Positions 11,608-59,453 of a stretch of 64,000 nucleotides of DNA are shown here, piece by piece. This DNA is from Candidatus Aminicenantes bacterium (GTDB taxonomy: Bacteria > Acidobacteriota > Aminicenantia > S016-38). The notes under the pieces are model-generated. The model had not been told where the DNA came from. It did no database searches and was given only the letters and a program-made list of their open reading frames with translations. A program made the translations under genes and the position numbers. The stretch covers positions 218,706-282,705 of the forward strand of contig JAMOUJ010000006.1 in NCBI GenBank assembly GCA_027068075.1. The letters run 5' to 3'. Numbering within the stretch: position 1 is the first letter of the stretch; every line of letters starts with the position of its first letter.

Positions 11608-11685
11608 TGGCGGGGCCGACGGGATTTGAACCCGCGACCTCTGGCGTGACAGGCCAGCGCTCTAACCGGGTTGAGCTACGACCCC
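11608..11685 (-). tRNA. tRNA-Asp (anticodon GTC)
   Basis: Reverse complement folds as a cloverleaf: acceptor GGGGTCG/CGGCCCC, anticodon loop CTGTCAC, T-loop TTCAAAT, 3' CCA encoded. Confidence 0.85.
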
Positions 11686-11692
11686 GCTACAC

Positions 11693-11764
11693 TGGGCGGT
11701 AGAGGACTTGAACCTCTGGCCCCCGGCTTGTAAGGCCAGTGCTCTACCACTGAGCTAACCGCCC
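11693..11764 (-). tRNA. tRNA-Val (anticodon TAC)
   Basis: Reverse complement GGGCGGTTAGCTCAGTGGTAGAGCACTGGCCTTACAAGCCGG...ACCGCCCA. Anticodon loop CTTACAA, T-loop TTCAAGT, no encoded CCA. Confidence 0.85.
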
Positions 11765-24617: not shown

Positions 24618-25846
24618 GAGCCGGCGGGCCTGAGGAAGAGGAGGAAGGTTTTGTATAGGATGTGTAAATCCATGTAAAAATTCCTGTGCTTTATGTAATA
24701 GAGGTCGTATTCAAGTTTTCTCAGGTGTTGATGGAAATCGTCGCCGGCGTATCCGAAATGAATCTGGGCCCAGCCTGTAACCCCGGGCCTTATTCGGGTT
24801 CTTAAGGGATAAAGGGGAAGTTGCCTTTCCAGTTCCTGGCTGATCATGGGTCTTTCCGGTCTGGGACCTACCAGGGACATGTCCCCCTTCAGGACATTCA
24901 ACAATTGAGGGACTTCGTCCAGGTGCAATTTTCGGATAACCCTGCCTATGCGGGTTATTCTGGGGTCGTTCTTTTTAGCAAAAACCGGCTTCCCTTCGGG
25001 TTCGGCGTTGGGGATCATGGTGCGGAATTTTATTAATTTGAAGGGTCTGCCGTCCTTTCCGAGCCTTTCCTGGAGGTAAAACATGGGCCCCGGGCTTTCC
25101 AGTTGATGAAGAAGGGCCATAAGTAGGGCCGGTGGGAGGAGCAGAAGAAGAGCCAGCAGAGAGATGGGTATTTCCAGGAGCCTCTTGACCCCTTCGTAGG
25201 AAAGTTTTTCCGAAGCAAGGACTTCCTCCGCCACCCTGTTTTCCGGTTTAAGTTCCAGGGGGACCAGTTTACCCAGGGTCTCCACGAATTCCTCCACGGA
25301 GAGGACGAGAACCCCATCCTTCCTTAAAATTTCCCGGAAGGTTTCCTTGTCCAACCTCCCGTTCACCACCATTATGTCCGAATCGTTGAGTTCCTTCACC
25401 GGCTTTGAGATTAGCATGTATTTTTTCTTAATCTCCTCAAAGGGAATTTTGGCTCTCCAGTGGACCCTGGGGAGTTTTTCCGGATTTTTGAAGAAAATGT
25501 AGGCGGAGATCAGAAGGAAGAAGGTTGCGTAGGTGAGCCTTCCCAGACCGTGGGAAAAGAAAAGGAAGGACTCTACTATGTAGGCCACCACCAGGGATAA
25601 TGTCACCTTTCCCATTCTGGAAAAAAAGGAGAATTCCCTCTCCAGGAGGTGAACCGGAGAGTTGAAGGTAAACCCCTTCAGGGCCTCGCACATGACGAAG
25701 AATACTGCCGAGAGCACCAGAAGGTTGGGATAATATTCTATCAGTAAGGTTTTCCACTTGGACAGGGAACCGGCGTAGGGGAGCAGGGAAAATCCTGAGA
25801 TGAGAAGAATGAAAAAAAGGTCTTTAAAGTAGTTCTTAATCTTCAT
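24608..25846 (-). CDS. Polyprenyl-phosphate glycosyl-phosphotransferase (WbaP/WcaJ-type EPS priming transferase)
   Basis: C-terminal bacterial sugar-transferase domain 'FKLIKFRTM...LDEVPQLLNVLKGDMSLVGPRPE' with N-terminal TM segments. Confidence 0.8.
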   Translation of the reverse strand: MKIKNYFKDLFFILLISGFSLLPYAGSLSKWKTLLIEYYPNLLVLSAVFFVMCEALKGFTFNSPVHLLEREFSFFSRMGKVTLSLVVAYIVESFLFFSHGLGRLTYATFFLLISAYIFFKNPEKLPRVHWRAKIPFEEIKKKYMLISKPVKELNDSDIMVVNGRLDKETFREILRKDGVLVLSVEEFVETLGKLVPLELKPENRVAEEVLASEKLSYEGVKRLLEIPISLLALLLLLPPALLMALLHQLESPGPMFYLQERLGKDGRPFKLIKFRTMIPNAEPEGKPVFAKKNDPRITRIGRVIRKLHLDEVPQLLNVLKGDMSLVGPRPERPMISQELERQLPLYPLRTRIRPGVTGWAQIHFGYAGDDFHQHLRKLEYDLYYIKHRNFYMDLHILYKTFLLFLRPAGSQE

Positions 25847-44130: not shown

Positions 44131-44370
44131 TTATTCATTTAGGGTAAAAATGGGGCAGGTGACCGTGCTCTCCACCTCCTCCATTTTCTGAAGGTGGTTG
44201 ACCACGAAGTCCCCCAGGGAGTTGAAGTCCTCTGTTTCCACCAGGCCTATTATGTCGTAAGGTCCGCTGACTATGTGGCATTGTTTTACGGAGGGCATCT
44301 CCCTCATTTTCCTCAAAACTTCCCCGGCCTTACCGGATTTTACATTCATGAGGACATACGCCTTAACCAT
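44131..44370 (-). CDS. Stand-alone Lrp/AsnC C-terminal ligand-binding (RAM) domain protein
   Basis: 79 aa. 'VKAYVLMNVKSG...VKQCHIVSGPYDIIGLVETEDFNSL' RAM-domain pattern without an HTH. Confidence 0.55.
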   Translation of the reverse strand: MVKAYVLMNVKSGKAGEVLRKMREMPSVKQCHIVSGPYDIIGLVETEDFNSLGDFVVNHLQKMEEVESTVTCPIFTLNE

Positions 44371-44503
44371 TCCGCCTGCCTTTGTTTATATACCTCTTTC
44401 TGTAATGGGTCAACAGTCTTTTTCTCCTTTTTCTGCTGAGCACTTCTTTAATCCGGCTCTTTGACTTCATCACTAATAATTATAGACACAGTTGGCCTAC
44501 TTT

Positions 44504-44743
44504 TCAATGGGACTCCAGGAATTCGTCCCGGCATTTTTCCGAGCAAAAATAATAGGTCCTGCCTTCGTATTGAAGTTTCAGGGCCATCTCCTCCTCTATG
44601 TACAGTCCGCAAACCGGGTCCTTTACCAGGTTCTTGACCCTGGGGGGAGCATTCCTCCGGGGTTCGGTTTTTCTCCGGGCAGGCTTAAGAAAGATAAGGT
44701 AAAAGAGGTAGCCCACGATTAATAGAAAAATGAGAGCGCTCAT
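44504..44743 (-). CDS. Membrane-anchored YHS/TRASH metal-binding domain protein
   Basis: N-terminal TM 'ALIFLLIVGYLFYLIF' then 'DPVCGLYI...YYFCSEKCRDEF', a YHS/TRASH Cys motif. Confidence 0.6.
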   Translation of the reverse strand: MSALIFLLIVGYLFYLIFLKPARRKTEPRRNAPPRVKNLVKDPVCGLYIEEEMALKLQYEGRTYYFCSEKCRDEFLESH

Positions 44744-45210
44744 CCTTCCATCATCTCCTTTATGTCGTTGTGGTAAAGAAATAGGTTGGGAGTGAATTTT
44801 CCGGGAAGGACCCTTATGGGATGTCCGTCCACCTCCTCAATTTTTTTCATGCCGTCCACATGGGGGGATATGGCCTTCATGGTTTTCAGGAGTTCCTTGA
44901 TTTTCCTCTTAGCCTCCGCCCTTTCCCTTTCCACGGCGAAAAGGATCCCGTGCCTTTCCACCGCCTCCCCCTGGATGTAATATCCCACGAAGGCGGCAAA
45001 GAGCCGTTCTTCGGTGGGTTCCCTTCCCACCTCCACCCTCCTTCCATCGGCGTAGTTTACTTCCACCAGGGAGTCAAAATGAAATTCCCCCTCCACCTCC
45101 TCCGCCACCTTCATCAGGGCTTCCCGGGGCGATCCCGCCACCCGGAAGAGGTAGCGGTGATTTTCCTCAAATTCCGTGTCAAAGCCCAGGCCTATCAGGT
45201 AAAGTTTCAT
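44740..45210 (-). CDS. Conserved-looking hypothetical protein (156 aa), translationally coupled between radical SAM and YHS genes
   Basis: Uninterrupted ORF with 4-nt overlaps on both sides. No recognisable motif. Confidence 0.4.
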   Translation of the reverse strand: MKLYLIGLGFDTEFEENHRYLFRVAGSPREALMKVAEEVEGEFHFDSLVEVNYADGRRVEVGREPTEERLFAAFVGYYIQGEAVERHGILFAVERERAEAKRKIKELLKTMKAISPHVDGMKKIEEVDGHPIRVLPGKFTPNLFLYHNDIKEMMEG

Positions 45211-46169
45211 TTTTTCCTCCCGAACACCCGGACGAGGAAGACCCTTCCCCGGTAGGTTATTTCCCGGAGTTTCCCCTCCTTTATGAGTTTCTCCACGGCG
45301 GACCAGTCGGCCCCTGACCTGCGGAGAATCTCCTCCACCGCCTCCTTCTCCATGGGGTGAACGGCGGCGGTGGCCAGTATGTCCCGCTCCGCATCGCCGG
45401 TGAAACCGAAACTTCCCTCTCCGGATCCCGTCAGGAGAAGGGGACGAAGTCCGTGGGCTTTAAAGATCAGGTAAGATCTGTGTAGAGTTTCTTCGTCGGC
45501 CCCTTCGGCCCATTCCTCCGCCGGGGGTCTTGTGGGGACCATGATGTAGGATGTTTCCGGCTTTATCCGGCTCAGAAATTCGGCGATTTTTTCTATCTCC
45601 TCCGGGGAATCGTTCAATCCCTTTATCAACATGGTTTCGCTGACCAGTTGGTTTCCAAACTCCCTGGAGAAGGTCTCCAGGCCCTCCAGTATCCTTTCCA
45701 GGGAAAGGCGGCCGTGGGGCCTGTCCACCTTTTTAAAGGCCTCCGGGGAGACCGCATCCACCTTTACGCATACCCAATCCGCCGGGGCCAGATCCCTCCT
45801 TACTTCCTCCATCCACAGGAGGGACGAATTGGTTATGACGGCTATTTTTATGCCCAGGCCCTTCAGGAGTTTTATTTCCTCTCCCAGGTTCAGGTCCAGG
45901 GTGGGTTCCCCGTCGGGAACGAAACTCAGGTAATCTATCCGAATCCCCCTGAGCCTCACCTGTTCCACCCTTTCCTTTACGCTTTCGTAGATCTGCCCTG
46001 GGGAATAAAAGACCCTCCTTTTGATGGACATTTCCAGGGTCTTTCCTATCTGACAGTAAACGCAGGAATAGGTGCAAATCTTAGGGGGAATGTTGTTGAT
46101 CCCCAGGCTCATGCCCAGGCGTCTTGAGGGGACCGGTCCAAAGGCTATGGCTTCGTTTTCCATGGTCAT
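45207..46169 (-). CDS. Radical SAM protein (COG0731-like)
   Basis: 'FGPVPSRRLGMSLGINNIPPKICTYSCVYCQ' gives a CxxxCxxC cluster within the N-terminal motif typical of the COG0731 radical SAM group. Confidence 0.7.
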   Translation of the reverse strand: MTMENEAIAFGPVPSRRLGMSLGINNIPPKICTYSCVYCQIGKTLEMSIKRRVFYSPGQIYESVKERVEQVRLRGIRIDYLSFVPDGEPTLDLNLGEEIKLLKGLGIKIAVITNSSLLWMEEVRRDLAPADWVCVKVDAVSPEAFKKVDRPHGRLSLERILEGLETFSREFGNQLVSETMLIKGLNDSPEEIEKIAEFLSRIKPETSYIMVPTRPPAEEWAEGADEETLHRSYLIFKAHGLRPLLLTGSGEGSFGFTGDAERDILATAAVHPMEKEAVEEILRRSGADWSAVEKLIKEGKLREITYRGRVFLVRVFGRKK

Positions 46170-46179
46170 GAATTATAAC

Positions 46180-46926
46180 TCATTTTGGTCTGGGACCTAC
46201 AGGGTGGAGGGCCAGGACGCCGGAGGTGGTTCCGTCCAGGTCCAGGAGTTGGTTGATGTATGTATCGTAGAAGGCCGCCACCTCCACGGTGGAGAGGCCG
46301 TAGGCCTCGCAGGCCAGGTAAATGTTCTGGGAAATGGCGCCGGATTCCATGTAAGCGTACCTGTATCCCCTGTCCAGGTATTTCCAGGTTACCCTCTGGA
46401 AAAAGGAGACGAGGACCAGGAGCAGGGGAGCCCTGGCCATCATGTCGCCCTGGGGAGAGAAACGGAGGATCTGCCTTCGGAAACTTCCCCTTTTCAGGAG
46501 GCCCACGGAGTTTTCTTCCGGCAGGAACAGGTAAAGTCCCTTCTCCAGACCCTCCACCTCCTCGGCAAAGAAGTATATGAAGATGGGGTAGAGGGCCCCG
46601 GCGGAGGGGGCTGTCCTTAACTTCAATCCATCCTTTTCACCGCTTATTCCGTCGGCGGCGTTTAGGAGTCCAGAAAGGACCTTCAATTTTATGGGGGAAC
46701 GGTAAAAACGCCTCCGGGACCTGCGGTTTTTCAGGGCCTCCTCCAGGGAAATCGGTGGAAACTCCGGCGGCGGAAGTTTAATTTTCCTTAAGAAAGTCCA
46801 TTCCATTTTCGGCCTCTTTTGCCATTTCACCGGGCCCAGGTATCCCCGGGGGGAGTAGGAGGTGAGATGGTGGAACTGGGGACCCGGAAGGTTTAAGGCT
46901 AAAAACAGGGCCAGTTCCAGGAGCAT
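46180..46926 (-). CDS. SagB-type dehydrogenase / nitroreductase-family protein
   Basis: 'LRTAPSAGALYP' hallmark of the SagB/ThcOx-type nitroreductase fold. An alternative start lies at 46806 ('MEWTFLRK'). Confidence 0.65.
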   Translation of the reverse strand: MLLELALFLALNLPGPQFHHLTSYSPRGYLGPVKWQKRPKMEWTFLRKIKLPPPEFPPISLEEALKNRRSRRRFYRSPIKLKVLSGLLNAADGISGEKDGLKLRTAPSAGALYPIFIYFFAEEVEGLEKGLYLFLPEENSVGLLKRGSFRRQILRFSPQGDMMARAPLLLVLVSFFQRVTWKYLDRGYRYAYMESGAISQNIYLACEAYGLSTVEVAAFYDTYINQLLDLDGTTSGVLALHPVGPRPK

Positions 46927-47459
46927 TATTCAACGAAAACCCGGGAATCCCCGGTGGAAAAGACCTTCACTCCAGGAAACAGGGCAAAACTCAGGTAAAC
47001 CTGGTAAAGGCTGGGCTGGTCCACCCTTTGTCTCCAGTATCTGAACCCCGTGGAAACCCTCAAATCCAGGAAGTATCTCCGCCGGTCCAGAAGCCGTGCC
47101 CTCTTGCTGGAGAAGGACAGGTCAAATAATTTTTCCTCTCCGCTCTGGAAGTATCCGATGGAGGTTCCGCCCAGGTAGAGGACCAGGAGTCTGCGGGAGG
47201 CCCCTTCGGTGAAGGGGGATGAAAAATTTATCCACCGAAGGCCCACGCCTATTCCGGCGAAGGTTATTCCCCCTCCTATCTCGGTCTGCTTGAGGAAACT
47301 AAATTCCACACTGGGAAGTTTCTCGTCCAACAATTTGCCCCGGGCATGGAAAAAGGAAAGCCCCAGGCCCAGATCAAGGAACCCCTCTATGTTCTCCCCC
47401 AGGGCCGGAGGAAGAAGCAGAAGGAGTCCCAGGACTAAGACCAGTAATTTTCCTCTCAT
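46926..47459 (-). CDS. Secreted small beta-barrel-like outer-membrane protein (hypothetical)
   Basis: Signal peptide 'MRGKLLVLVLGLLLLLPPALG'. Alternating amphipathic strands, Gly-rich. Confidence 0.4.
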   Translation of the reverse strand: MRGKLLVLVLGLLLLLPPALGENIEGFLDLGLGLSFFHARGKLLDEKLPSVEFSFLKQTEIGGGITFAGIGVGLRWINFSSPFTEGASRRLLVLYLGGTSIGYFQSGEEKLFDLSFSSKRARLLDRRRYFLDLRVSTGFRYWRQRVDQPSLYQVYLSFALFPGVKVFSTGDSRVFVE

Positions 47460-47471
47460 AAACCAATGATA

Positions 47472-49232
47472 TCACACCTCAATTTCTTCCCACAGGGTCA
47501 TGACTTCCTTCAGGAGTTCCACCCCTTCCAGGAGAAGGAATCCGGCGGTGGTTATCTTTTCGTCCTTGGAGAAATGGGATATTTTGGCCTGGGTTAGGGT
47601 TTTTTCAAAGATCTCAGGATCCAGACCGGAGACCTTCTCCGCTTCCTTGAGATTTACCCTTCCCTTTTCGTCGGTGGCCTCCCTGGCAGCCAGGAGAAAT
47701 CTTACCAGATGCGGGGTCACATGGAACTCTATCCCGTCGGGAACGGCGGAAATGGCCCTCTTTATCCTTTCACCTGCCTCGGTTAGGCGGTAAAAGCCTC
47801 CGGGCAGGGCGTCTATAAGGGATTGTCCCACGAGTTTTCTCAGGGCTGAGCGGACATGTTCCTCCTCACGGGGGGGGAACTTGGCCAGGAGCCAGGGTTC
47901 AAACACCCCCCTCCAGAGGGGCATGGATTTCAGGACCCTGGCCTCAAAGGCGGAAATCATGGGGAGCCTTTCAATGGAACTGGCCAACTGGGCGAAGAAC
48001 CTTCCGGACTTGCTGGGGAAGCCGTTTCCCAGGAGGCCCTGCTCCTCCGCCTTTGCTACCCAGGAGTCCCCCGGGGAGAGGTTCTCCATTCTGGTGGTGG
48101 TTATGGCCATTACTGCGGTGGCGGAAACTTCCTTTTTCCCGTGCTGTTTCCTGTCCTGAAAAACCTTTTCACCCCATTCTGTAAATTCGTAGACCAGTTC
48201 TCCCCTTTCACCTATCCACGAGTGGAGCATTCTGTAACTTTCCAGGAGATATAAAGAATAGGAAACCTTCCACGGGGTTATGGAGTGTTCGTCCTCCGCC
48301 TTTTTCCTTATCTGGGAATAACTGGGATATATTTCGGGATTCGCTTCGTGGGTTTTCCAGAGACCCTCAATTATCTCCAGGATGGTCAGGTCCTGGGTGT
48401 CAATGTCTATGGATGGGTTCACCGTTATCGGTTCCACATAGAGAAGTTGGGCGGCCTTCAGAAGGTGATCGCCGGCGGGAAGGAGGTTTCCTTTGCCGTC
48501 CAGGGCCCCCATGAGCATAAGTTTTTCCCGGAGTTCTCCCCCGGGATCCCTCTCCAGAAGGGAAACGAGGATTTCGTCGGTAAGGGGAAAGTTCACCGCC
48601 GCCCCTTTGAGGAGTCCAGCCCTTATCTGCTGACCTGGCCCGGTAAGGGAGTAGTTGTTGCCGTGGGGAAGGGAGAAGGTGAGCAGGCCCATGGCCTCCA
48701 GTTGCATTATTTTCTCCCTGGTGAGGGGAAGGAAGGATTTTTTGCCCGGTCCCGGAGGGGTCTTCCTGAGTTTTTCCGCCAGGGCCGGGGAAATGAAAAC
48801 CCTGGACTCCGCTATTTTGTAAGCCTGAAGCAGGGATTCTCCCAGGGGAAGAAGTTTTCCGTCCCTGGCCAGTCCCCTTCTTTGAAGGGCAGAGGAGATT
48901 TCCTCCTGGAGGGAAATGTCCCCCTGGCTGAGAACCGCTATCTCCAGCATGGAGATTACCTCGGAGCCCACGAATCGGAAGTCCTCCTCCCAGTCCTCCA
49001 CGGGTCCCAGGGTTTCTTCGCATTCCCGGATGGCCTCGGATACCATGTGGCCGGCCTGGGTGAGGGAATATACCCCTTCCTCCTCGGTGAGGAGTCCCTC
49101 CAGGTCCAGGTGAAATAAATATTCTATGTCCTCGTCGGTCAGTTTATCCAGGACCCGGTCCAATTCTATGCCCTGGTCCCATTTTTCTGCCATTCTCTTT
49201 ATCAGGGCTGCGTGCTTTTTCAGAATTATCAT
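47472..49232 (-). CDS. Large acidic hypothetical protein built of repeated winged-helix-like units
   Basis: 586 aa with at least 5 recurrences of '...GLL....G.Y.LT.AG...' (YSLTQAGHMV, YSLTGPGQQI, NLLPAGDHLL, YRLTEAGERI, KITTAGFLLL), resembling MarR/PadR wings. Confidence 0.45.
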   Translation of the reverse strand: MIILKKHAALIKRMAEKWDQGIELDRVLDKLTDEDIEYLFHLDLEGLLTEEEGVYSLTQAGHMVSEAIRECEETLGPVEDWEEDFRFVGSEVISMLEIAVLSQGDISLQEEISSALQRRGLARDGKLLPLGESLLQAYKIAESRVFISPALAEKLRKTPPGPGKKSFLPLTREKIMQLEAMGLLTFSLPHGNNYSLTGPGQQIRAGLLKGAAVNFPLTDEILVSLLERDPGGELREKLMLMGALDGKGNLLPAGDHLLKAAQLLYVEPITVNPSIDIDTQDLTILEIIEGLWKTHEANPEIYPSYSQIRKKAEDEHSITPWKVSYSLYLLESYRMLHSWIGERGELVYEFTEWGEKVFQDRKQHGKKEVSATAVMAITTTRMENLSPGDSWVAKAEEQGLLGNGFPSKSGRFFAQLASSIERLPMISAFEARVLKSMPLWRGVFEPWLLAKFPPREEEHVRSALRKLVGQSLIDALPGGFYRLTEAGERIKRAISAVPDGIEFHVTPHLVRFLLAAREATDEKGRVNLKEAEKVSGLDPEIFEKTLTQAKISHFSKDEKITTAGFLLLEGVELLKEVMTLWEEIEV

Positions 49233-49279: not shown

Positions 49280-50230
49280 TCAAAAGGTCTTTTCCCATCG
49301 GATCTCTATTTTCTGGTAGGGAACCCAGACGCCGTCCACCCATCCGCTGGCAAGGGTAAAGGCGAGGTTAAACCCTTTGAGGAAGACCTCCTTCCTGTAA
49401 CCCAGCCATGTTAAATTGTTGCCCCGGTAAAGGGGGTCCCCGTCCTGATGGTAGAAATTCCTTCCCCACCAACGGCTAAGGAAGACCTCCCCATATTTTC
49501 CCGAGAGGGAAAGGAGGGCTTCGGTTCCCCTGCCGGTAAATCTTGAGGGTTTCCACCGATCCGGTATGTAGTAGGAAAGGAACCGGGCAGCGGAGAGGTT
49601 CACCGTTCCCAGGGGGGTGGGAAGTTTAACTCCGGCTCTCCCCATGAAGGCCATGTCGTCCTGGGGACCTACATGATGCTCCATGTACTCCCCTCCGAAG
49701 TGGACATAGTGATACTGGAAGGAGGCAAAGACCCCACCGCTTTCCAGCCGAAGTTTCAGCCCCACATCAAAATTCTCCTGGACCAGTTTTTTCATTTCCC
49801 TTTCCCAGTTTATCCAAACTTCCCCCTGGAGGGTTTTGCGTTTGTAGGACAACTGAAATCCCCTCTCCGCCGGCCTTTCGTAATAGAGGGCGTCAAAGTA
49901 TAGGGCCCTGTGGAGACCATGGAATTTACGGAGGTTTCCGAAGCGAAAACTGAACTCTCTGGAGGGCGAAAAGACCACCGCCAGATAGGGGAGGATCCTT
50001 CTGTCTCCACCGTAGAACCTCCACAGCAGGGCTCCGGCCTCGGCCTTTACCGCAGAATTGATTTTTATGGAAAAATACCCCTGAATCCAGTCTCCGAAGA
50101 AGGTTCTGCCGTCGTAGTAGGGGTTGGATTTGTATTCAAAATTGTAAAAAAGGGAATAATTTTCCAGGGAGAAGTTCACCCCGGCCATCATCAACCAGGA
50201 GGAAAGAAGAATAAACGGGATTTTCCTCAT
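49280..50230 (-). CDS. Outer-membrane beta-barrel protein (hypothetical)
   Basis: Signal peptide 'MRKIPFILLSSWLMMAG'. Aromatic-rich alternating strands. C-terminal '...RWEKTF' ends in Phe. Confidence 0.5.
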   Translation of the reverse strand: MRKIPFILLSSWLMMAGVNFSLENYSLFYNFEYKSNPYYDGRTFFGDWIQGYFSIKINSAVKAEAGALLWRFYGGDRRILPYLAVVFSPSREFSFRFGNLRKFHGLHRALYFDALYYERPAERGFQLSYKRKTLQGEVWINWEREMKKLVQENFDVGLKLRLESGGVFASFQYHYVHFGGEYMEHHVGPQDDMAFMGRAGVKLPTPLGTVNLSAARFLSYYIPDRWKPSRFTGRGTEALLSLSGKYGEVFLSRWWGRNFYHQDGDPLYRGNNLTWLGYRKEVFLKGFNLAFTLASGWVDGVWVPYQKIEIRWEKTF

Positions 50231-50345
50231 GAAGGAGCCATTATAAACCATGGTTTTTTTTCAAGTCAACGCTACCCCCTTTCCCCTGAGGGTTGACTTT
50301 TGCCAGGGGAGTATAGAAAATATAACTTTAACAGGAGGAGAGAAG

Positions 50346-53096
50346 ATGCTTGATCCCAAGGAACTCAAAAAGACCCTGAACCTGCCGAAGACCGAGTTTC
50401 CCATGAAGGCTTCCCTGCCCCGCCGGGAGCCTGAGATACTGAAGAAGTGGACCGAAATGAAACTTTACCAGCGAATACGAAAGGAAAGGGAGGGACGGCC
50501 CAAGTTTATACTCCACGACGGCCCTCCTTACGCCAACGGAAGAATACACCTTGGGCACGCCCTGAATAAAATCCTCAAGGACTTTGTGGTGAAGTCCTAT
50601 TCCATGATGGGCTACGATGCCCCCTATGTTCCCGGATGGGACTGCCACGGCCTGCCCATTGAGATAAAGGTGGAAAACCGCATAGGAAGGCTGGAGGACA
50701 AGGCGAAGTTTCGCCGGGAATGCAAAAAATACGCCGAGAAGTATGTGGGCCTCCAGAGGGACGAGTTCATAAGGCTGGGGGTTCTGGGGGATTGGGAGAA
50801 TCCCTACCTCACCATGGACCCCGAATACGAGGCGGAAATAATCAGGCACATAAAGGGATTTTTCCAGAGGGGTGAGGTTTACAGGGCCAGGAAGCCCGTA
50901 TACTGGTGCCCCCATTGTAAAACCGCCCTGGCGGAGGCCGAAATAGAATATCACGACCACAAATCCCCGTCCATTTATGTGAAGTTTCCCCTCCTTGAGC
51001 CGGAGAAACTTTCACCTTCCCTGGAGGGAAAGAGGGTGTTCGTGGTCATCTGGACCACCACCCCCTGGACCCTTCCGGCCAATCTGGCCATAGCCCTACA
51101 CCCAGACTACGATTACGGGGTTTTCCGCCACGGAGACGAGTACTACATCCTTGCCAGGTTGCTGGCCCCTGTGGTGGAGGAGGAACTGGGAGCGTCCTTT
51201 GAACTGGTCCACAAATTTGAAGGAAAGGAATTGGAGGGCTTCCGGGCCAGGCATCCGTTTCTTGACAGGGAGAGCGTGATAGTCCTGGCGGATTATGTAA
51301 CCCTGGAGCAGGGAACGGGATGCGTTCACATAGCCCCGGGCCACGGGGAGGAGGACTATCAGACCGGGCTTAAATACGGCCTGGAGGTGCTTTCTCCGGT
51401 GGACGACGAGGGAAGATTCACCGGGGAGGTGGAATTTTTGAAAGGCAAGACGGTATGGGAAGCCAATCCCATAGTCCTGGAGGTTCTCAGGGAAAGGGGG
51501 ATGCTTCTGGCCCAGGGGGAGATAAGCCATTCCTATCCCCACTGCTGGAGATGTAAGGGGCCCGTGATTTTCCGGGCTACTCCCCAGTGGTTCATTTCCA
51601 TGGACAGGGCCGGGCTGAGGAAAAGGGCCTTAGAGGAGATAAAAAAGGTCCGCTGGATTCCATCCTGGGGCGAGGAAAGGATCTCCAACATGATAGAAAA
51701 CAGACCCGATTGGTGTATTTCCCGGCAGAGGAGTTGGGGAGTTCCCATTCCGGTTTTCTACTGTAAGAACTGCGGAGAACCCCTGACGAAGCCGGAGGTC
51801 ATGGACCGGGTGGCGGAGGTCTTTGAAGGGGAGGGTTCCGATGCCTGGTTCTCCCATCCTCCCCAATACTTTATTCCCCAGGGCGTGAAGTGCGAAAAAT
51901 GCGGTGGGAGGGAATTCGTCAAGGAAAACGACATCGTGGATGTGTGGTTTGAATCGGGAACATCCCACGCCATCCTCAAGCATAGGCCTGACCACCGCTG
52001 GCCCGCCGATGTTTACCTGGAGGGCAACGACCAGTACAGGGGATGGTTCCACAGTTCCCTTCTGGTGGCCCTGGCCAACGAGGGGGAAAGCCCCTACAGG
52101 CAGGTTATTACCCACGGATGGGTTCTGGACGAGCACGGCAGGGCCATGTCCAAATCCATGGGCAATGTTATAGAGCCCGGGGAGATAATAAAAGATTACG
52201 GGGCGGAAATTCTCCGCCTATGGGTGGCCTTTCTGGACTACACGGAGGATGTGAAATTGGGGGAAAACATCCTCCAGCGACTCACCGAGGCCTATCGTAA
52301 GATGAGGAACACCTGGAGGTTCATGCTGGGAAACCTGAGGGATTTCGTCCCGGAAAAGGACTCCGTGGAAGAAGACCAGTTTCTCCCTTCCGACAGGTTC
52401 ATCCTGACTAAATTCAGACGGCTGGTGGAAAGGGTCAAGAAACTTTACGAAAACTATCAGTATTACAAGATAGCCCACCTCCTCTACGATTTCTTCACCG
52501 TGGATCTCAGTTCCTTTTACCTGGACATAACCAAGGACCGGCTTTACTGTTCGGCGCCGGCCTCCCCCGGGAGAAGGGCAGCCCAGACGGCCATATTTGA
52601 AATGGCCAGGGACAGCATGAGGCTTCTGGCTCCCATCCTCTCCTTTACCTCCGAGGAGGCCTGGGAGCATCTTCCGGAATTCCCGGAGAAAAAACCTTCG
52701 GTTCACCTGGAGTTTTTCCCTCCAGCCCTTCCTTCACTCCTTTCCCAGGAGGAGGAAAGGGATTGGGAGGTTCTCATGAAATACAGGGACCTGGCCAACA
52801 AGGCCCTGGATCAGGCCAGGAAGGAGGGCTTTATAGGGAACTCCCTGGAGGCTTCCCTGGTGTTTTACGCCCCGGCGGAGGAAAGGAAGGTCCTGGAAAA
52901 ATATTCCTCCCACTTCCTGGAGATATTCATCGTCTCCTCCTGGAAAATAGAGGAAGGCGAGGAAAGGGTGGAGGTGGAGAAGGCTCCGGGCAAGAAATGC
53001 GAGCGCTGCTGGGTTTATCATCCCGAGGTGGGCAAGGACCCGGAATACCCCAACCTCTGCCCCAGGTGTGTAGCGGTGGTTAAGGAGTTGATTTGA
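50346..53096 (+). CDS. ileS: Isoleucine--tRNA ligase
   Basis: HIGH motif '[14 protein letters not shown]', KMSKS motif 'KMSKS'->'AMSKSMGN', C-terminal zinc-finger cysteines. Start at 'MLDPKEL' after GGAGGAG. Confidence 0.95.
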
Positions 53097-59366: not shown

Positions 59367-59453
59367 TGGTGCCGAGGGCGGGACTCGAACCCGCACGGGC
59401 TTAGACCCACCAACACCTCAAGCTGGCGCGTCTGCCAATTCCGCCACCTCGGC
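59367..59453 (-). tRNA. tRNA-Leu (anticodon GAG)
   Basis: 87 nt class-II tRNA with a long variable arm: GCCGAGG...CCAGC-TTGAGGT-GTTGG...CCTCGGC-A-CCA. CCA encoded. Confidence 0.8.

Follow-up and report, generated by a model that had tools for sequence, protein, structure and literature searches.

We analysed a window of 64,000 nucleotides (nt) from a Candidatus Aminicenantes bacterium (contig JAMOUJ010000006.1, positions 218,706 to 282,705 of the forward strand); positions below are those of the window unless a locus number precedes them. According to the open reading frame (ORF) listing, four genes run in the same direction on the minus strand, from 46926 to 44504. An earlier note on this DNA had described them as encoding a SagB-type dehydrogenase, a radical S-adenosylmethionine (SAM) enzyme, a 156-aa unknown protein and a YHS/TRASH membrane protein, and had taken them together as a candidate system for the modification of a peptide, a small molecule or a metallocofactor. 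Comparison with close and distant loci led us to a different reading: the block probably consists of two or more unrelated units that have come to lie side by side in one clade, and is not a conserved biosynthetic module; its four genes would form the last part of a longer string of genes in the same direction (Table 1).

The junctions of the block were read directly from the sequence. The stop codon of the SagB-type gene (TGA) is followed, after 10 nt, by the ATG of the radical SAM gene (46169/46180); the radical SAM and DUF1543 genes share an ATGA overlap with GGGAGG upstream of it (45207/45210), and a second ATGA overlap joins the DUF1543 and YHS genes (44740/44743). The arrangement of the four genes is thus as the earlier note had given it, and three of its labels, SagB-type, radical SAM and YHS, agree with the profile searches (TIGR03605, PF04055 and PF04945). 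The 156-aa protein is encoded by a real gene, but it belongs to a named family, DUF1543 (PF07566). Upstream of the block, the start of the SagB-type gene overlaps the end of unk177 by 1 nt (TAATG), the DUF505 gene lies 12 nt beyond unk177, and the LpxZ-like gene lies 47 nt beyond DUF505. The Lipid_A_deac family (PF28590) was present in the orthologues of the LpxZ-like gene in two related loci, L001 and L092.

Table 1. Genes and promoter-like sites of the co-directional string and of the region directly downstream of it.
Feature	Position	Strand	Family evidence or remark
Promoter-like site at the LpxZ-like gene	50269..50240	-	11 of 12 positions matched
LpxZ-like / lipid A deacylase-like gene	49280..50251	-	First gene of the co-directional string; NF052651 45.9 bits, under the cut-off
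DUF505 protein, 586 aa, winged-helix regions	47472..49232	-	PF04458, E = 2.5e-127
unk177, 177 aa, Sec-type signal peptide	46926..47459	-	No known family
SagB/ThcOx-type flavin mononucleotide (FMN) dehydrogenase, 248 aa	46180..46926	-	TIGR03605, PF00881
Radical SAM enzyme, 320 aa	45207..46169	-	PF04055
DUF1543-family protein, 156 aa	44740..45210	-	PF07566
YHS/TRASH protein, 79 aa, membrane-tethered	44504..44743	-	PF04945
Promoter-like site TTGAAA-17-TATAAT	44507..44479	-	11 of 12 positions matched; directly 3' of the YHS stop
Small basic ORF, 35-36 aa, ending ...KIKEVLSRKRRKRLLTHYRKRYINKGRRNG	44363..44473	-	Stop overlaps the AsnC-like ATG (AATGGTTAA)
Stand-alone Lrp/AsnC ligand-binding-domain protein, 79 aa	44131..44370	-	PF01037 53.4 bits; first annotated gene of the PhoH-HD-YbeY-CorC unit

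Tight packing proved to be the norm in the window. When genes were called as the longest ORF, the gap was 15 nt or less in 26 of the 38 same-strand neighbour pairs; 20 of the 38 overlapped, and the overlap was exactly 4 nt in 7. The overlaps at the four-gene block therefore carry no special weight: they reflect a compact genome and are no evidence of a special functional link among the four genes. The earlier note had read them as a sign of translational coupling, and of this the overlaps themselves are real and co-transcription of the four genes is plausible from the layout; the packing, on the other hand, is ordinary for the window, and the unit as first drawn was cut too short upstream, where unk177, DUF505 and the LpxZ-like gene continue the string.

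We then compared the gene order within the clade. The complete arrangement was found only in the window and in the close relatives L001, L005 and L092/L093. As far as each contig reaches, these share the order LpxZ-like, DUF505, unk177, SagB, radical SAM, DUF1543, YHS, AsnC-like, PhoH, HD, YbeY and CorC, so that the whole string of about 12 genes, and not the four alone, is equally syntenic in the clade. Identity to the window was 88–90% for PhoH, 80–86% for DUF505, 66–81% for the radical SAM protein and 54–64% for the DUF1543 protein; after PhoH, DUF505 is the second most conserved protein of the string. Because the relatives are so close, as the PhoH values illustrate, a gene order common to the clade is to be expected and tells little.

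To look beyond the clade, we collected 85 radical SAM loci, consisting of 80 species-level genome loci from Bacteria and Archaea at 49–68% identity (L012–L091) together with L002–L004 and L094/L095, and 86 SagB loci, consisting of 80 metagenome loci at 35–65% identity together with L006–L011; the flanks covered were about 6 kb. In the 85 radical SAM loci, tblastn found no relative of SagB, DUF1543, YHS, unk177 or DUF505, and the family hidden Markov models (HMMs) found no DUF1543, YHS or unk177. The sole nitroreductase reported by the HMMs among these loci was a weak, generic match on the opposite strand in L085. The block partners were already absent beside relatives at 62–68% identity, including the closest named one, a Candidatus Aminicenantes metagenome-assembled genome (L012, 68%), and the radical SAM genes at 62% (P0010, L002–L004) and 66% (P0008, L094/L095) stand alone, adjoining a divergent DUF4139 gene. 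In the opposite direction, neither tblastn nor the HMMs found a copy of the window's radical SAM family, DUF1543 or YHS in the 86 SagB loci, and SagB relatives at 67% (L006/L007), 59% (L008/L009) and 43% (L010/L011) identity occur without the radical SAM gene. Co-occurrence of SagB, radical SAM, DUF1543 and YHS in distant genomes was accordingly seen in none of the 85 and 86 loci.

These results bear on the view that the four genes make up one system devoted to maturation: the radical SAM and SagB-type enzymes would act on a common substrate (a peptide, a small molecule or a metallocofactor), with a metal being supplied or sensed by the YHS protein. Such a system would fit the tight junctions, which are kept in four genomes, but overlaps of this kind are the norm in this genome, and no family that we followed kept its synteny outside the clade. 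The comparison of neighbourhoods in relatives, which the earlier note had proposed, showed that the block is lost beyond roughly genus or family depth; because the homologues are not syntenic outside this narrow clade, a single modification system is unsupported. The one gene that stays beside the SagB-type gene in relatives lacking radical SAM, DUF1543 and YHS is unk177, a homologue of which lies directly upstream of SagB, with the radical SAM gene absent, in L006/L007 (L006 4153–4683) and in L097 (5395–5922). Judged from these loci, the unk177-SagB pair looks like the real conserved unit.

The SagB-type protein scored 127.7 bits against TIGR03605 (cut-off 78.4) and 77.1 bits against PF00881, which corresponds to the nitroreductase fold. 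Its Lys-Tyr pair, K182-Y183, is invariant in 32 sequences of the subfamily (alignment A3) and is aligned with the WKY motif of CyaGox. The protein begins with a short hydrophobic segment, and the invariant residues G15, F18 and T22 of alignment A3 support the long start. Members of the subfamily are short (240–275 aa), and most of them begin with a hydrophobic segment resembling a signal peptide or a lipoprotein signal, after which comes a conserved IGxxFHxxT motif. Among solved structures, the nearest relative is 3EO7, an uncharacterised double-domain protein (E = 9e-78 with the family profile). The partner protein, unk177, has an N-terminal Sec-type signal peptide with cleavage read as MRGKLLVLVLGLLLLLPPALG/EN, and it had no Pfam or NCBIfam match. 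In distant SagB relatives, the gene directly downstream often encodes either a 75-aa, His-containing protein with two transmembrane helices and weak similarity to DUF4405 and cytochrome b561 (15 loci; e.g., L158 6708–6935) or a DUF4186 protein (11 loci; e.g., L124 1239–1592). Because the N-termini of the subfamily are signal-like and the partner carries a signal peptide, an envelope role may be assigned to SagB, and the features of the two proteins point to an envelope-associated flavin oxidoreductase. Its compartment would then differ from the cytoplasm that radical SAM chemistry requires. An exported FMN enzyme without a Tat (twin-arginine translocation) motif would be unusual.

The azoline dehydrogenases of the thiazole/oxazole-modified microcin (TOMM) and cyanobactin systems (SagB, McbC, BcerB and CyaGox/ThcOx) share the nitroreductase/FMN fold, TIGR03605 and the Lys-Tyr pair with the window's protein, and the score above the cut-off and this pair are points in favour of a maturation system for peptides that are ribosomally synthesised and modified post-translationally (RiPPs). 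Unlike in those systems, however, the window's protein is short (about 250 aa), it belongs to a subfamily in which an N-terminal signal or anchor predominates, and its partners are unk177 or, in distant relatives, the 75-aa protein or DUF4186; a subfamily that looks exported or membrane-anchored speaks against a role in such maturation. The other parts of a RiPP system were also missing. A Pfam scan of the genes from the LpxZ-like to the AsnC-like gene gave no YcaO or E1-like protein, and the precomputed Pfam lists for L001 and L092, which extend about 6 kb to either side, contained no YcaO, so that no cyclodehydratase lies within that distance. Near SagB there was no heterocyclisable precursor rich in Cys, Ser or Thr.

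Two further observations concern the SagB relatives. The window's own locus (L177) and L006, which holds an unk176-SagB pair without the radical SAM gene and whose SagB is 67% identical, were assembled from the same sequencing run, SRR7968104; they may belong to different organisms or be paralogous loci within a single genome. In addition, two SagB relatives (L008 6778–7155; L006 6170–6613) adjoin a Nitro_FeMo-Co (NifX-like) gene or are two genes away from a CGGC-domain gene, and both of these families are also found repeatedly near the radical SAM family in other loci. The link was absent from the 80 metagenome SagB loci, and this vicinity is probably coincidental.

The radical SAM protein scored 70.3 bits against PF04055 (cut-off 29.5). 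It has a single CX3CX2C motif, and C32, C36 and C39 are the sole invariant or near-invariant Cys residues in an alignment of 25 sequences (A2); since only three Cys are invariant, the family conserves one cluster. The homologues number at least 8,000 database proteins with E ≤ 1e-10, and identity between bacterial and archaeal members is typically 50–57%. The named taxa are anaerobes: Thermococcus, Methanothrix, Thermoplasmatota, Bathyarchaeota, Anaerolineae, Aminicenantes, Ignavibacteria, Omnitrophota, Desulfobacterales and Atribacterota. By these criteria, the protein belongs to a large, strongly conserved and uncharacterised family. No sequence match was found in the PDB, and no NCBIfam model came near its cut-off, the best being viperin NF038283 (40.7 bits against 180) and TYW1 TIGR03972 (31.6 bits against 317.95). 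The structural model had an overall pLDDT (predicted local distance difference test) of 70, with residues 50–245 mostly above 70. In the Foldseek search, pyruvate formate-lyase activating enzyme, NifB, TYW1, viperin and RlmN matched about equally well (TM-score, i.e., template modelling score, 0.4–0.5), the first four with probability 1.0 and TM-scores of 0.42–0.50; with a partial TIM-barrel core in common, such model-based matches would be informative to the superfamily level only. The last 60 or so residues (260–314) are predicted to form three helices and a hairpin. In the PqqD-like RiPP recognition element (RRE) the strands come first, an order of elements different from helix-helix-helix-hairpin. 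The protein had no SPASM match in Pfam and no conserved C-terminal Cys, and the absence of SPASM and of extra conserved Cys is a further argument against its part in a maturation system.

On these data we weighed two assignments of the radical SAM protein to known enzymes. The first is a TYW1-like (COG0731) tRNA-modification enzyme with unrelated neighbours, an outcome that the earlier note had itself envisaged. The window's protein does resemble TYW1 in its core, with CX3CX2C near the N-terminus, and in its size; automatic annotation attaches the COG0731 label to its family, many homologues carry the name “wyosine synthetase (radical SAM superfamily)” at the Joint Genome Institute (JGI), the fold matches include TYW1 structures (TM-score about 0.45), and TrmO is an occasional neighbour of the family, as described below. 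Unlike TYW1, however, it scores one tenth of the equivalog cut-off and, with three invariant Cys only, conserves no Cys for an auxiliary cluster; its helix-helix-helix-hairpin C-terminal domain is specific to the window's family, and the other folds match equally well. Wyosine derivatives are not known from Bacteria, where the family is widespread. We consider this assignment very improbable. The second, a prokaryotic viperin-like antiviral enzyme in a defence locus, is scarcely credible. Viperin models are indeed the top matches in both NCBIfam and PADLOC (40.7 and 42.5 bits), but the former is far under the cut-off, the SagB, DUF1543, YHS, unk177 and DUF505 proteins all lack a PADLOC match, and the family, with its high cross-domain identity, has housekeeping and metal genes around it and does not lie in defence islands. 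Membership in TYW1 or viperin was ruled out on the curated cut-offs, and a defence system was ruled out because PADLOC yielded only the weak pVip matches.

The usual neighbours of the family were counted in 79 species-level radical SAM loci by BLAST clustering of three genes on either side. The most frequent was a MinD/ParA ATPase with an inserted ferredoxin (Fer4) domain (26 of 79 loci), followed by a Methyltransf_11 protein of about 210 aa in 19 loci, directly upstream in 12 and on the same strand in 19 of its 21 copies. Less frequent were a metallo-beta-lactamase (MBL)-fold protein (17 loci), an ArsP_2 permease (10), an AmmeMemoRadiSam-like radical SAM protein (7), an AIR-synthase-like protein (6), a CGGC-domain protein and FeoB (5 each) and TrmO (4); ferredoxin-NifX-like (Nitro_FeMo-Co) proteins were also recurrent. 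When the window was searched for MinD-Fer4, the methyltransferase, MBL, ArsP_2 and CGGC proteins, the sole match was a marginal NifX-like one at 24618–24854, and none lay near the radical SAM gene. From the neighbours that the family usually has elsewhere, we infer that it has a conserved, cytoplasmic role connected either with methylation or with the handling of Fe-S or metals.

The methyltransferase and ArsP_2 neighbours raised the possibility of an organoarsenical enzyme like ArsL or ArsS. Among the organoarsenical radical SAM pairs (ArsL-ArsM-ArsQ and ArsS-ArsM), the layout of methyltransferase, radical SAM protein and permease found in arsQML (PMC8552651) resembles the neighbourhood that the family often has elsewhere. 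The architecture, however, differs: BgArsL has 428 aa, and its cluster motif occupies residues 194–201 (PMC8552651), whereas the window's protein has 320 aa with the motif at 32–39, and BgArsM is a four-cysteine protein of 378 aa (PMC8552651), whereas the neighbouring methyltransferase elsewhere is the 210-aa Methyltransf_11 protein. No ArsS model was among the 14 NCBIfam matches, and the candidate was rejected, the distinction from ArsL being drawn from its description.

The 156-aa protein scored 31.6 bits against PF07566 (cut-off 22.9) and consists of two beta-beta-alpha-beta-like repeats. Its model (pLDDT 80) superposes on the crystal structure 2QSD (IL1583 of Idiomarina loihiensis) with TM-scores of 0.62–0.66, at a sequence identity of 21–24%. 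As the family has no known function, DUF1543 membership says nothing on mechanism. Close relatives are confined to the clade: a word-index search gave four clusters, and only 2 of the 91 matches in the profile search were below 1e-10. Of the outgroups, the nearest (P0245, E = 1.7e-45) comes after a DUF402 gene, with a 4-nt overlap, and another (P0247) lies 3' of a penicillin-binding protein gene; a radical SAM gene adjoins neither of them. The YHS protein scored 53.8 bits against PF04945 (cut-off 30.3) and is made up of one N-terminal transmembrane helix, a basic stretch and the cysteines C45-x21-C67-x3-C71, all three conserved in four orthologues. The C-x21-C-x3-C spacing falls within the C-x(19-22)-C-x3-C pattern of YHS/TRASH domains, and the TRASH-type metal-binding domain probably faces the cytoplasm. 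A single N-terminal transmembrane helix followed by the domain is also the plan of PP0621-family proteins, but the score against that family (NF041023, 28.2 bits) is under the cut-off of 45, and the YHS gene adjoins neither a metal transporter nor a monooxygenase. In the library of papers that was searched, no paper mentioned DUF1543 or COG0731, and nothing relevant turned up on SagB, radical SAM and YHS.

The region downstream of the YHS gene was analysed as the boundary of the string. The gap between the YHS and AsnC-like genes is 133 nt and holds a promoter-like site (Table 1). Its TATAAT hexamer is invariant in the four genomes, while its TTGAAA hexamer overlaps the His and stop codons of the YHS gene and the hexamer spacing differs in L001; for these last two reasons we grade it only as a likely promoter starting the next transcription unit. 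Behind it lies the small basic ORF, whose protein sequence is conserved in L001, L005 and L092. Pairwise comparison gave 8–13 synonymous and 4–11 non-synonymous (mostly conservative) codon differences, a pattern that supports its coding status, and it had no match in Pfam or NCBIfam. The distance from the invariant TATAAT to the ATG of this ORF is only about 8 nt, so a leaderless mRNA is conceivable. A conserved small ORF so close to the block might be counted in favour of a maturation system, with this ORF as the precursor. It is, however, rich in Arg and Lys, has no Cys, follows its own promoter-like site and is joined to the AsnC-like start, and because it is so basic, lacks Cys and stands behind that site, it does not read as a plausible RiPP precursor. 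The earlier note had seen no precursor-peptide ORF by eye, which holds for a RiPP-like precursor, this being the only conserved small ORF. Taking this together with the results on synteny, on the missing RiPP parts and on the SagB subfamily, we regard a dedicated maturation system of the four genes as improbable.

Several other features were noted around the string. An 81-aa antisense ORF (44194–44439, plus strand) is longer than the AsnC-like gene that it covers and would mislead a longest-ORF caller; antisense ORFs of this kind are numerous across the region. At the upstream end, back-to-back promoter-like sites occupy 50240–50321, between the divergent isoleucyl-tRNA synthetase (IleRS) gene (50250–53096, plus strand) and the LpxZ-like gene. 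Called as longest ORFs, these two genes share 2 nt at their starts, so that the true start of one or both probably lies more internally. Terminator-like sites in the window were no commoner than in shuffled sequence, and none that was convincing lay 3' of the YHS gene on the minus strand. With Rfam gathering thresholds, the 64-kb window contained tRNA genes only (n = 3; 11611–11764 and 59370–59453, minus strand), none of them near the locus. A riboswitch or other RNA element at the locus was ruled out on this result, all three tRNAs being distant.

Based on these results, we favour the reading of the locus as a lineage-specific string in which an envelope redox pair, unk177-SagB, has been joined to an orphan radical SAM gene and two small lineage-specific genes. 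The string would run from the LpxZ-like gene to the YHS gene and end at the promoter-like site, ahead of the small ORF and the AsnC-like/PhoH/HD/YbeY/CorC unit. Its first unit, unk177 and SagB, would provide a short FMN dehydrogenase with an N-terminal anchor or signal, that is, a flavin oxidoreductase acting at or beyond the inner membrane. In the second, a [4Fe-4S] cluster on C32, C36 and C39 would cleave SAM reductively, as the chemistry of the superfamily suggests, and the substrate may be one that is conserved across anaerobic Bacteria and Archaea and has to do with methylation or with Fe-S or metal handling. DUF1543 and the YHS protein, with its three-Cys domain facing the cytoplasm, would be lineage-specific additions translationally coupled to the radical SAM gene, whether or not they are its accessories.

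Some points weigh against this reading. All four related genomes (the window, L001, L005 and L092) retain the ATGA overlaps between radical SAM and DUF1543 and between DUF1543 and YHS, and relatives of DUF1543 and YHS as close as these were found nowhere outside the clade. Furthermore, partners encoded beyond the roughly 6 kb of flank would have been missed, and the signal and anchor assignments for SagB and unk177 were read by eye, not taken from a dedicated predictor. Because of the first two points, a clade-specific trio keeps a modest chance: the radical SAM enzyme would have recruited DUF1543 and YHS, for metal or cluster delivery or substrate presentation, say, while SagB belongs to the separate pair with unk177. 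The near confinement of this DUF1543 subtype to the clade suits such a trio, and since metal and Fe-S proteins are usual beside the radical SAM family, a metal-binding partner would fit. On the other side, the 85 radical SAM loci outside the clade contained neither DUF1543 nor YHS, in the closest DUF1543 outgroup a 4-nt overlap of the same kind links the gene to DUF402, such overlaps are common in the window, and the clade is too shallow, as judged from PhoH, for their retention to weigh much. We thus consider the trio rather unlikely, and retain the juxtaposition of unrelated units as our preferred explanation.

The genes of the block add members to families that are known but whose functions are uncharacterised. 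As the locus does not hold as a RiPP or cofactor-maturation system, it has low priority for natural-product mining, and it illustrates that a “SagB-type” call alone is a poor indicator of RiPPs, because short and apparently exported members have as their partner either a protein with a signal peptide or a small membrane protein containing His. It is doubtful that DUF1543 and YHS work with the radical SAM enzyme in this clade, for example in metal delivery or substrate presentation; if the three did work together, the locus would for the first time offer a way into the function of the orphan radical SAM family and of DUF1543. The radical SAM family itself, with thousands of members and a reproducible neighbourhood, is a well-defined “known unknown” of anaerobe biochemistry, and its value in this respect is a general one that does not depend on this particular locus.

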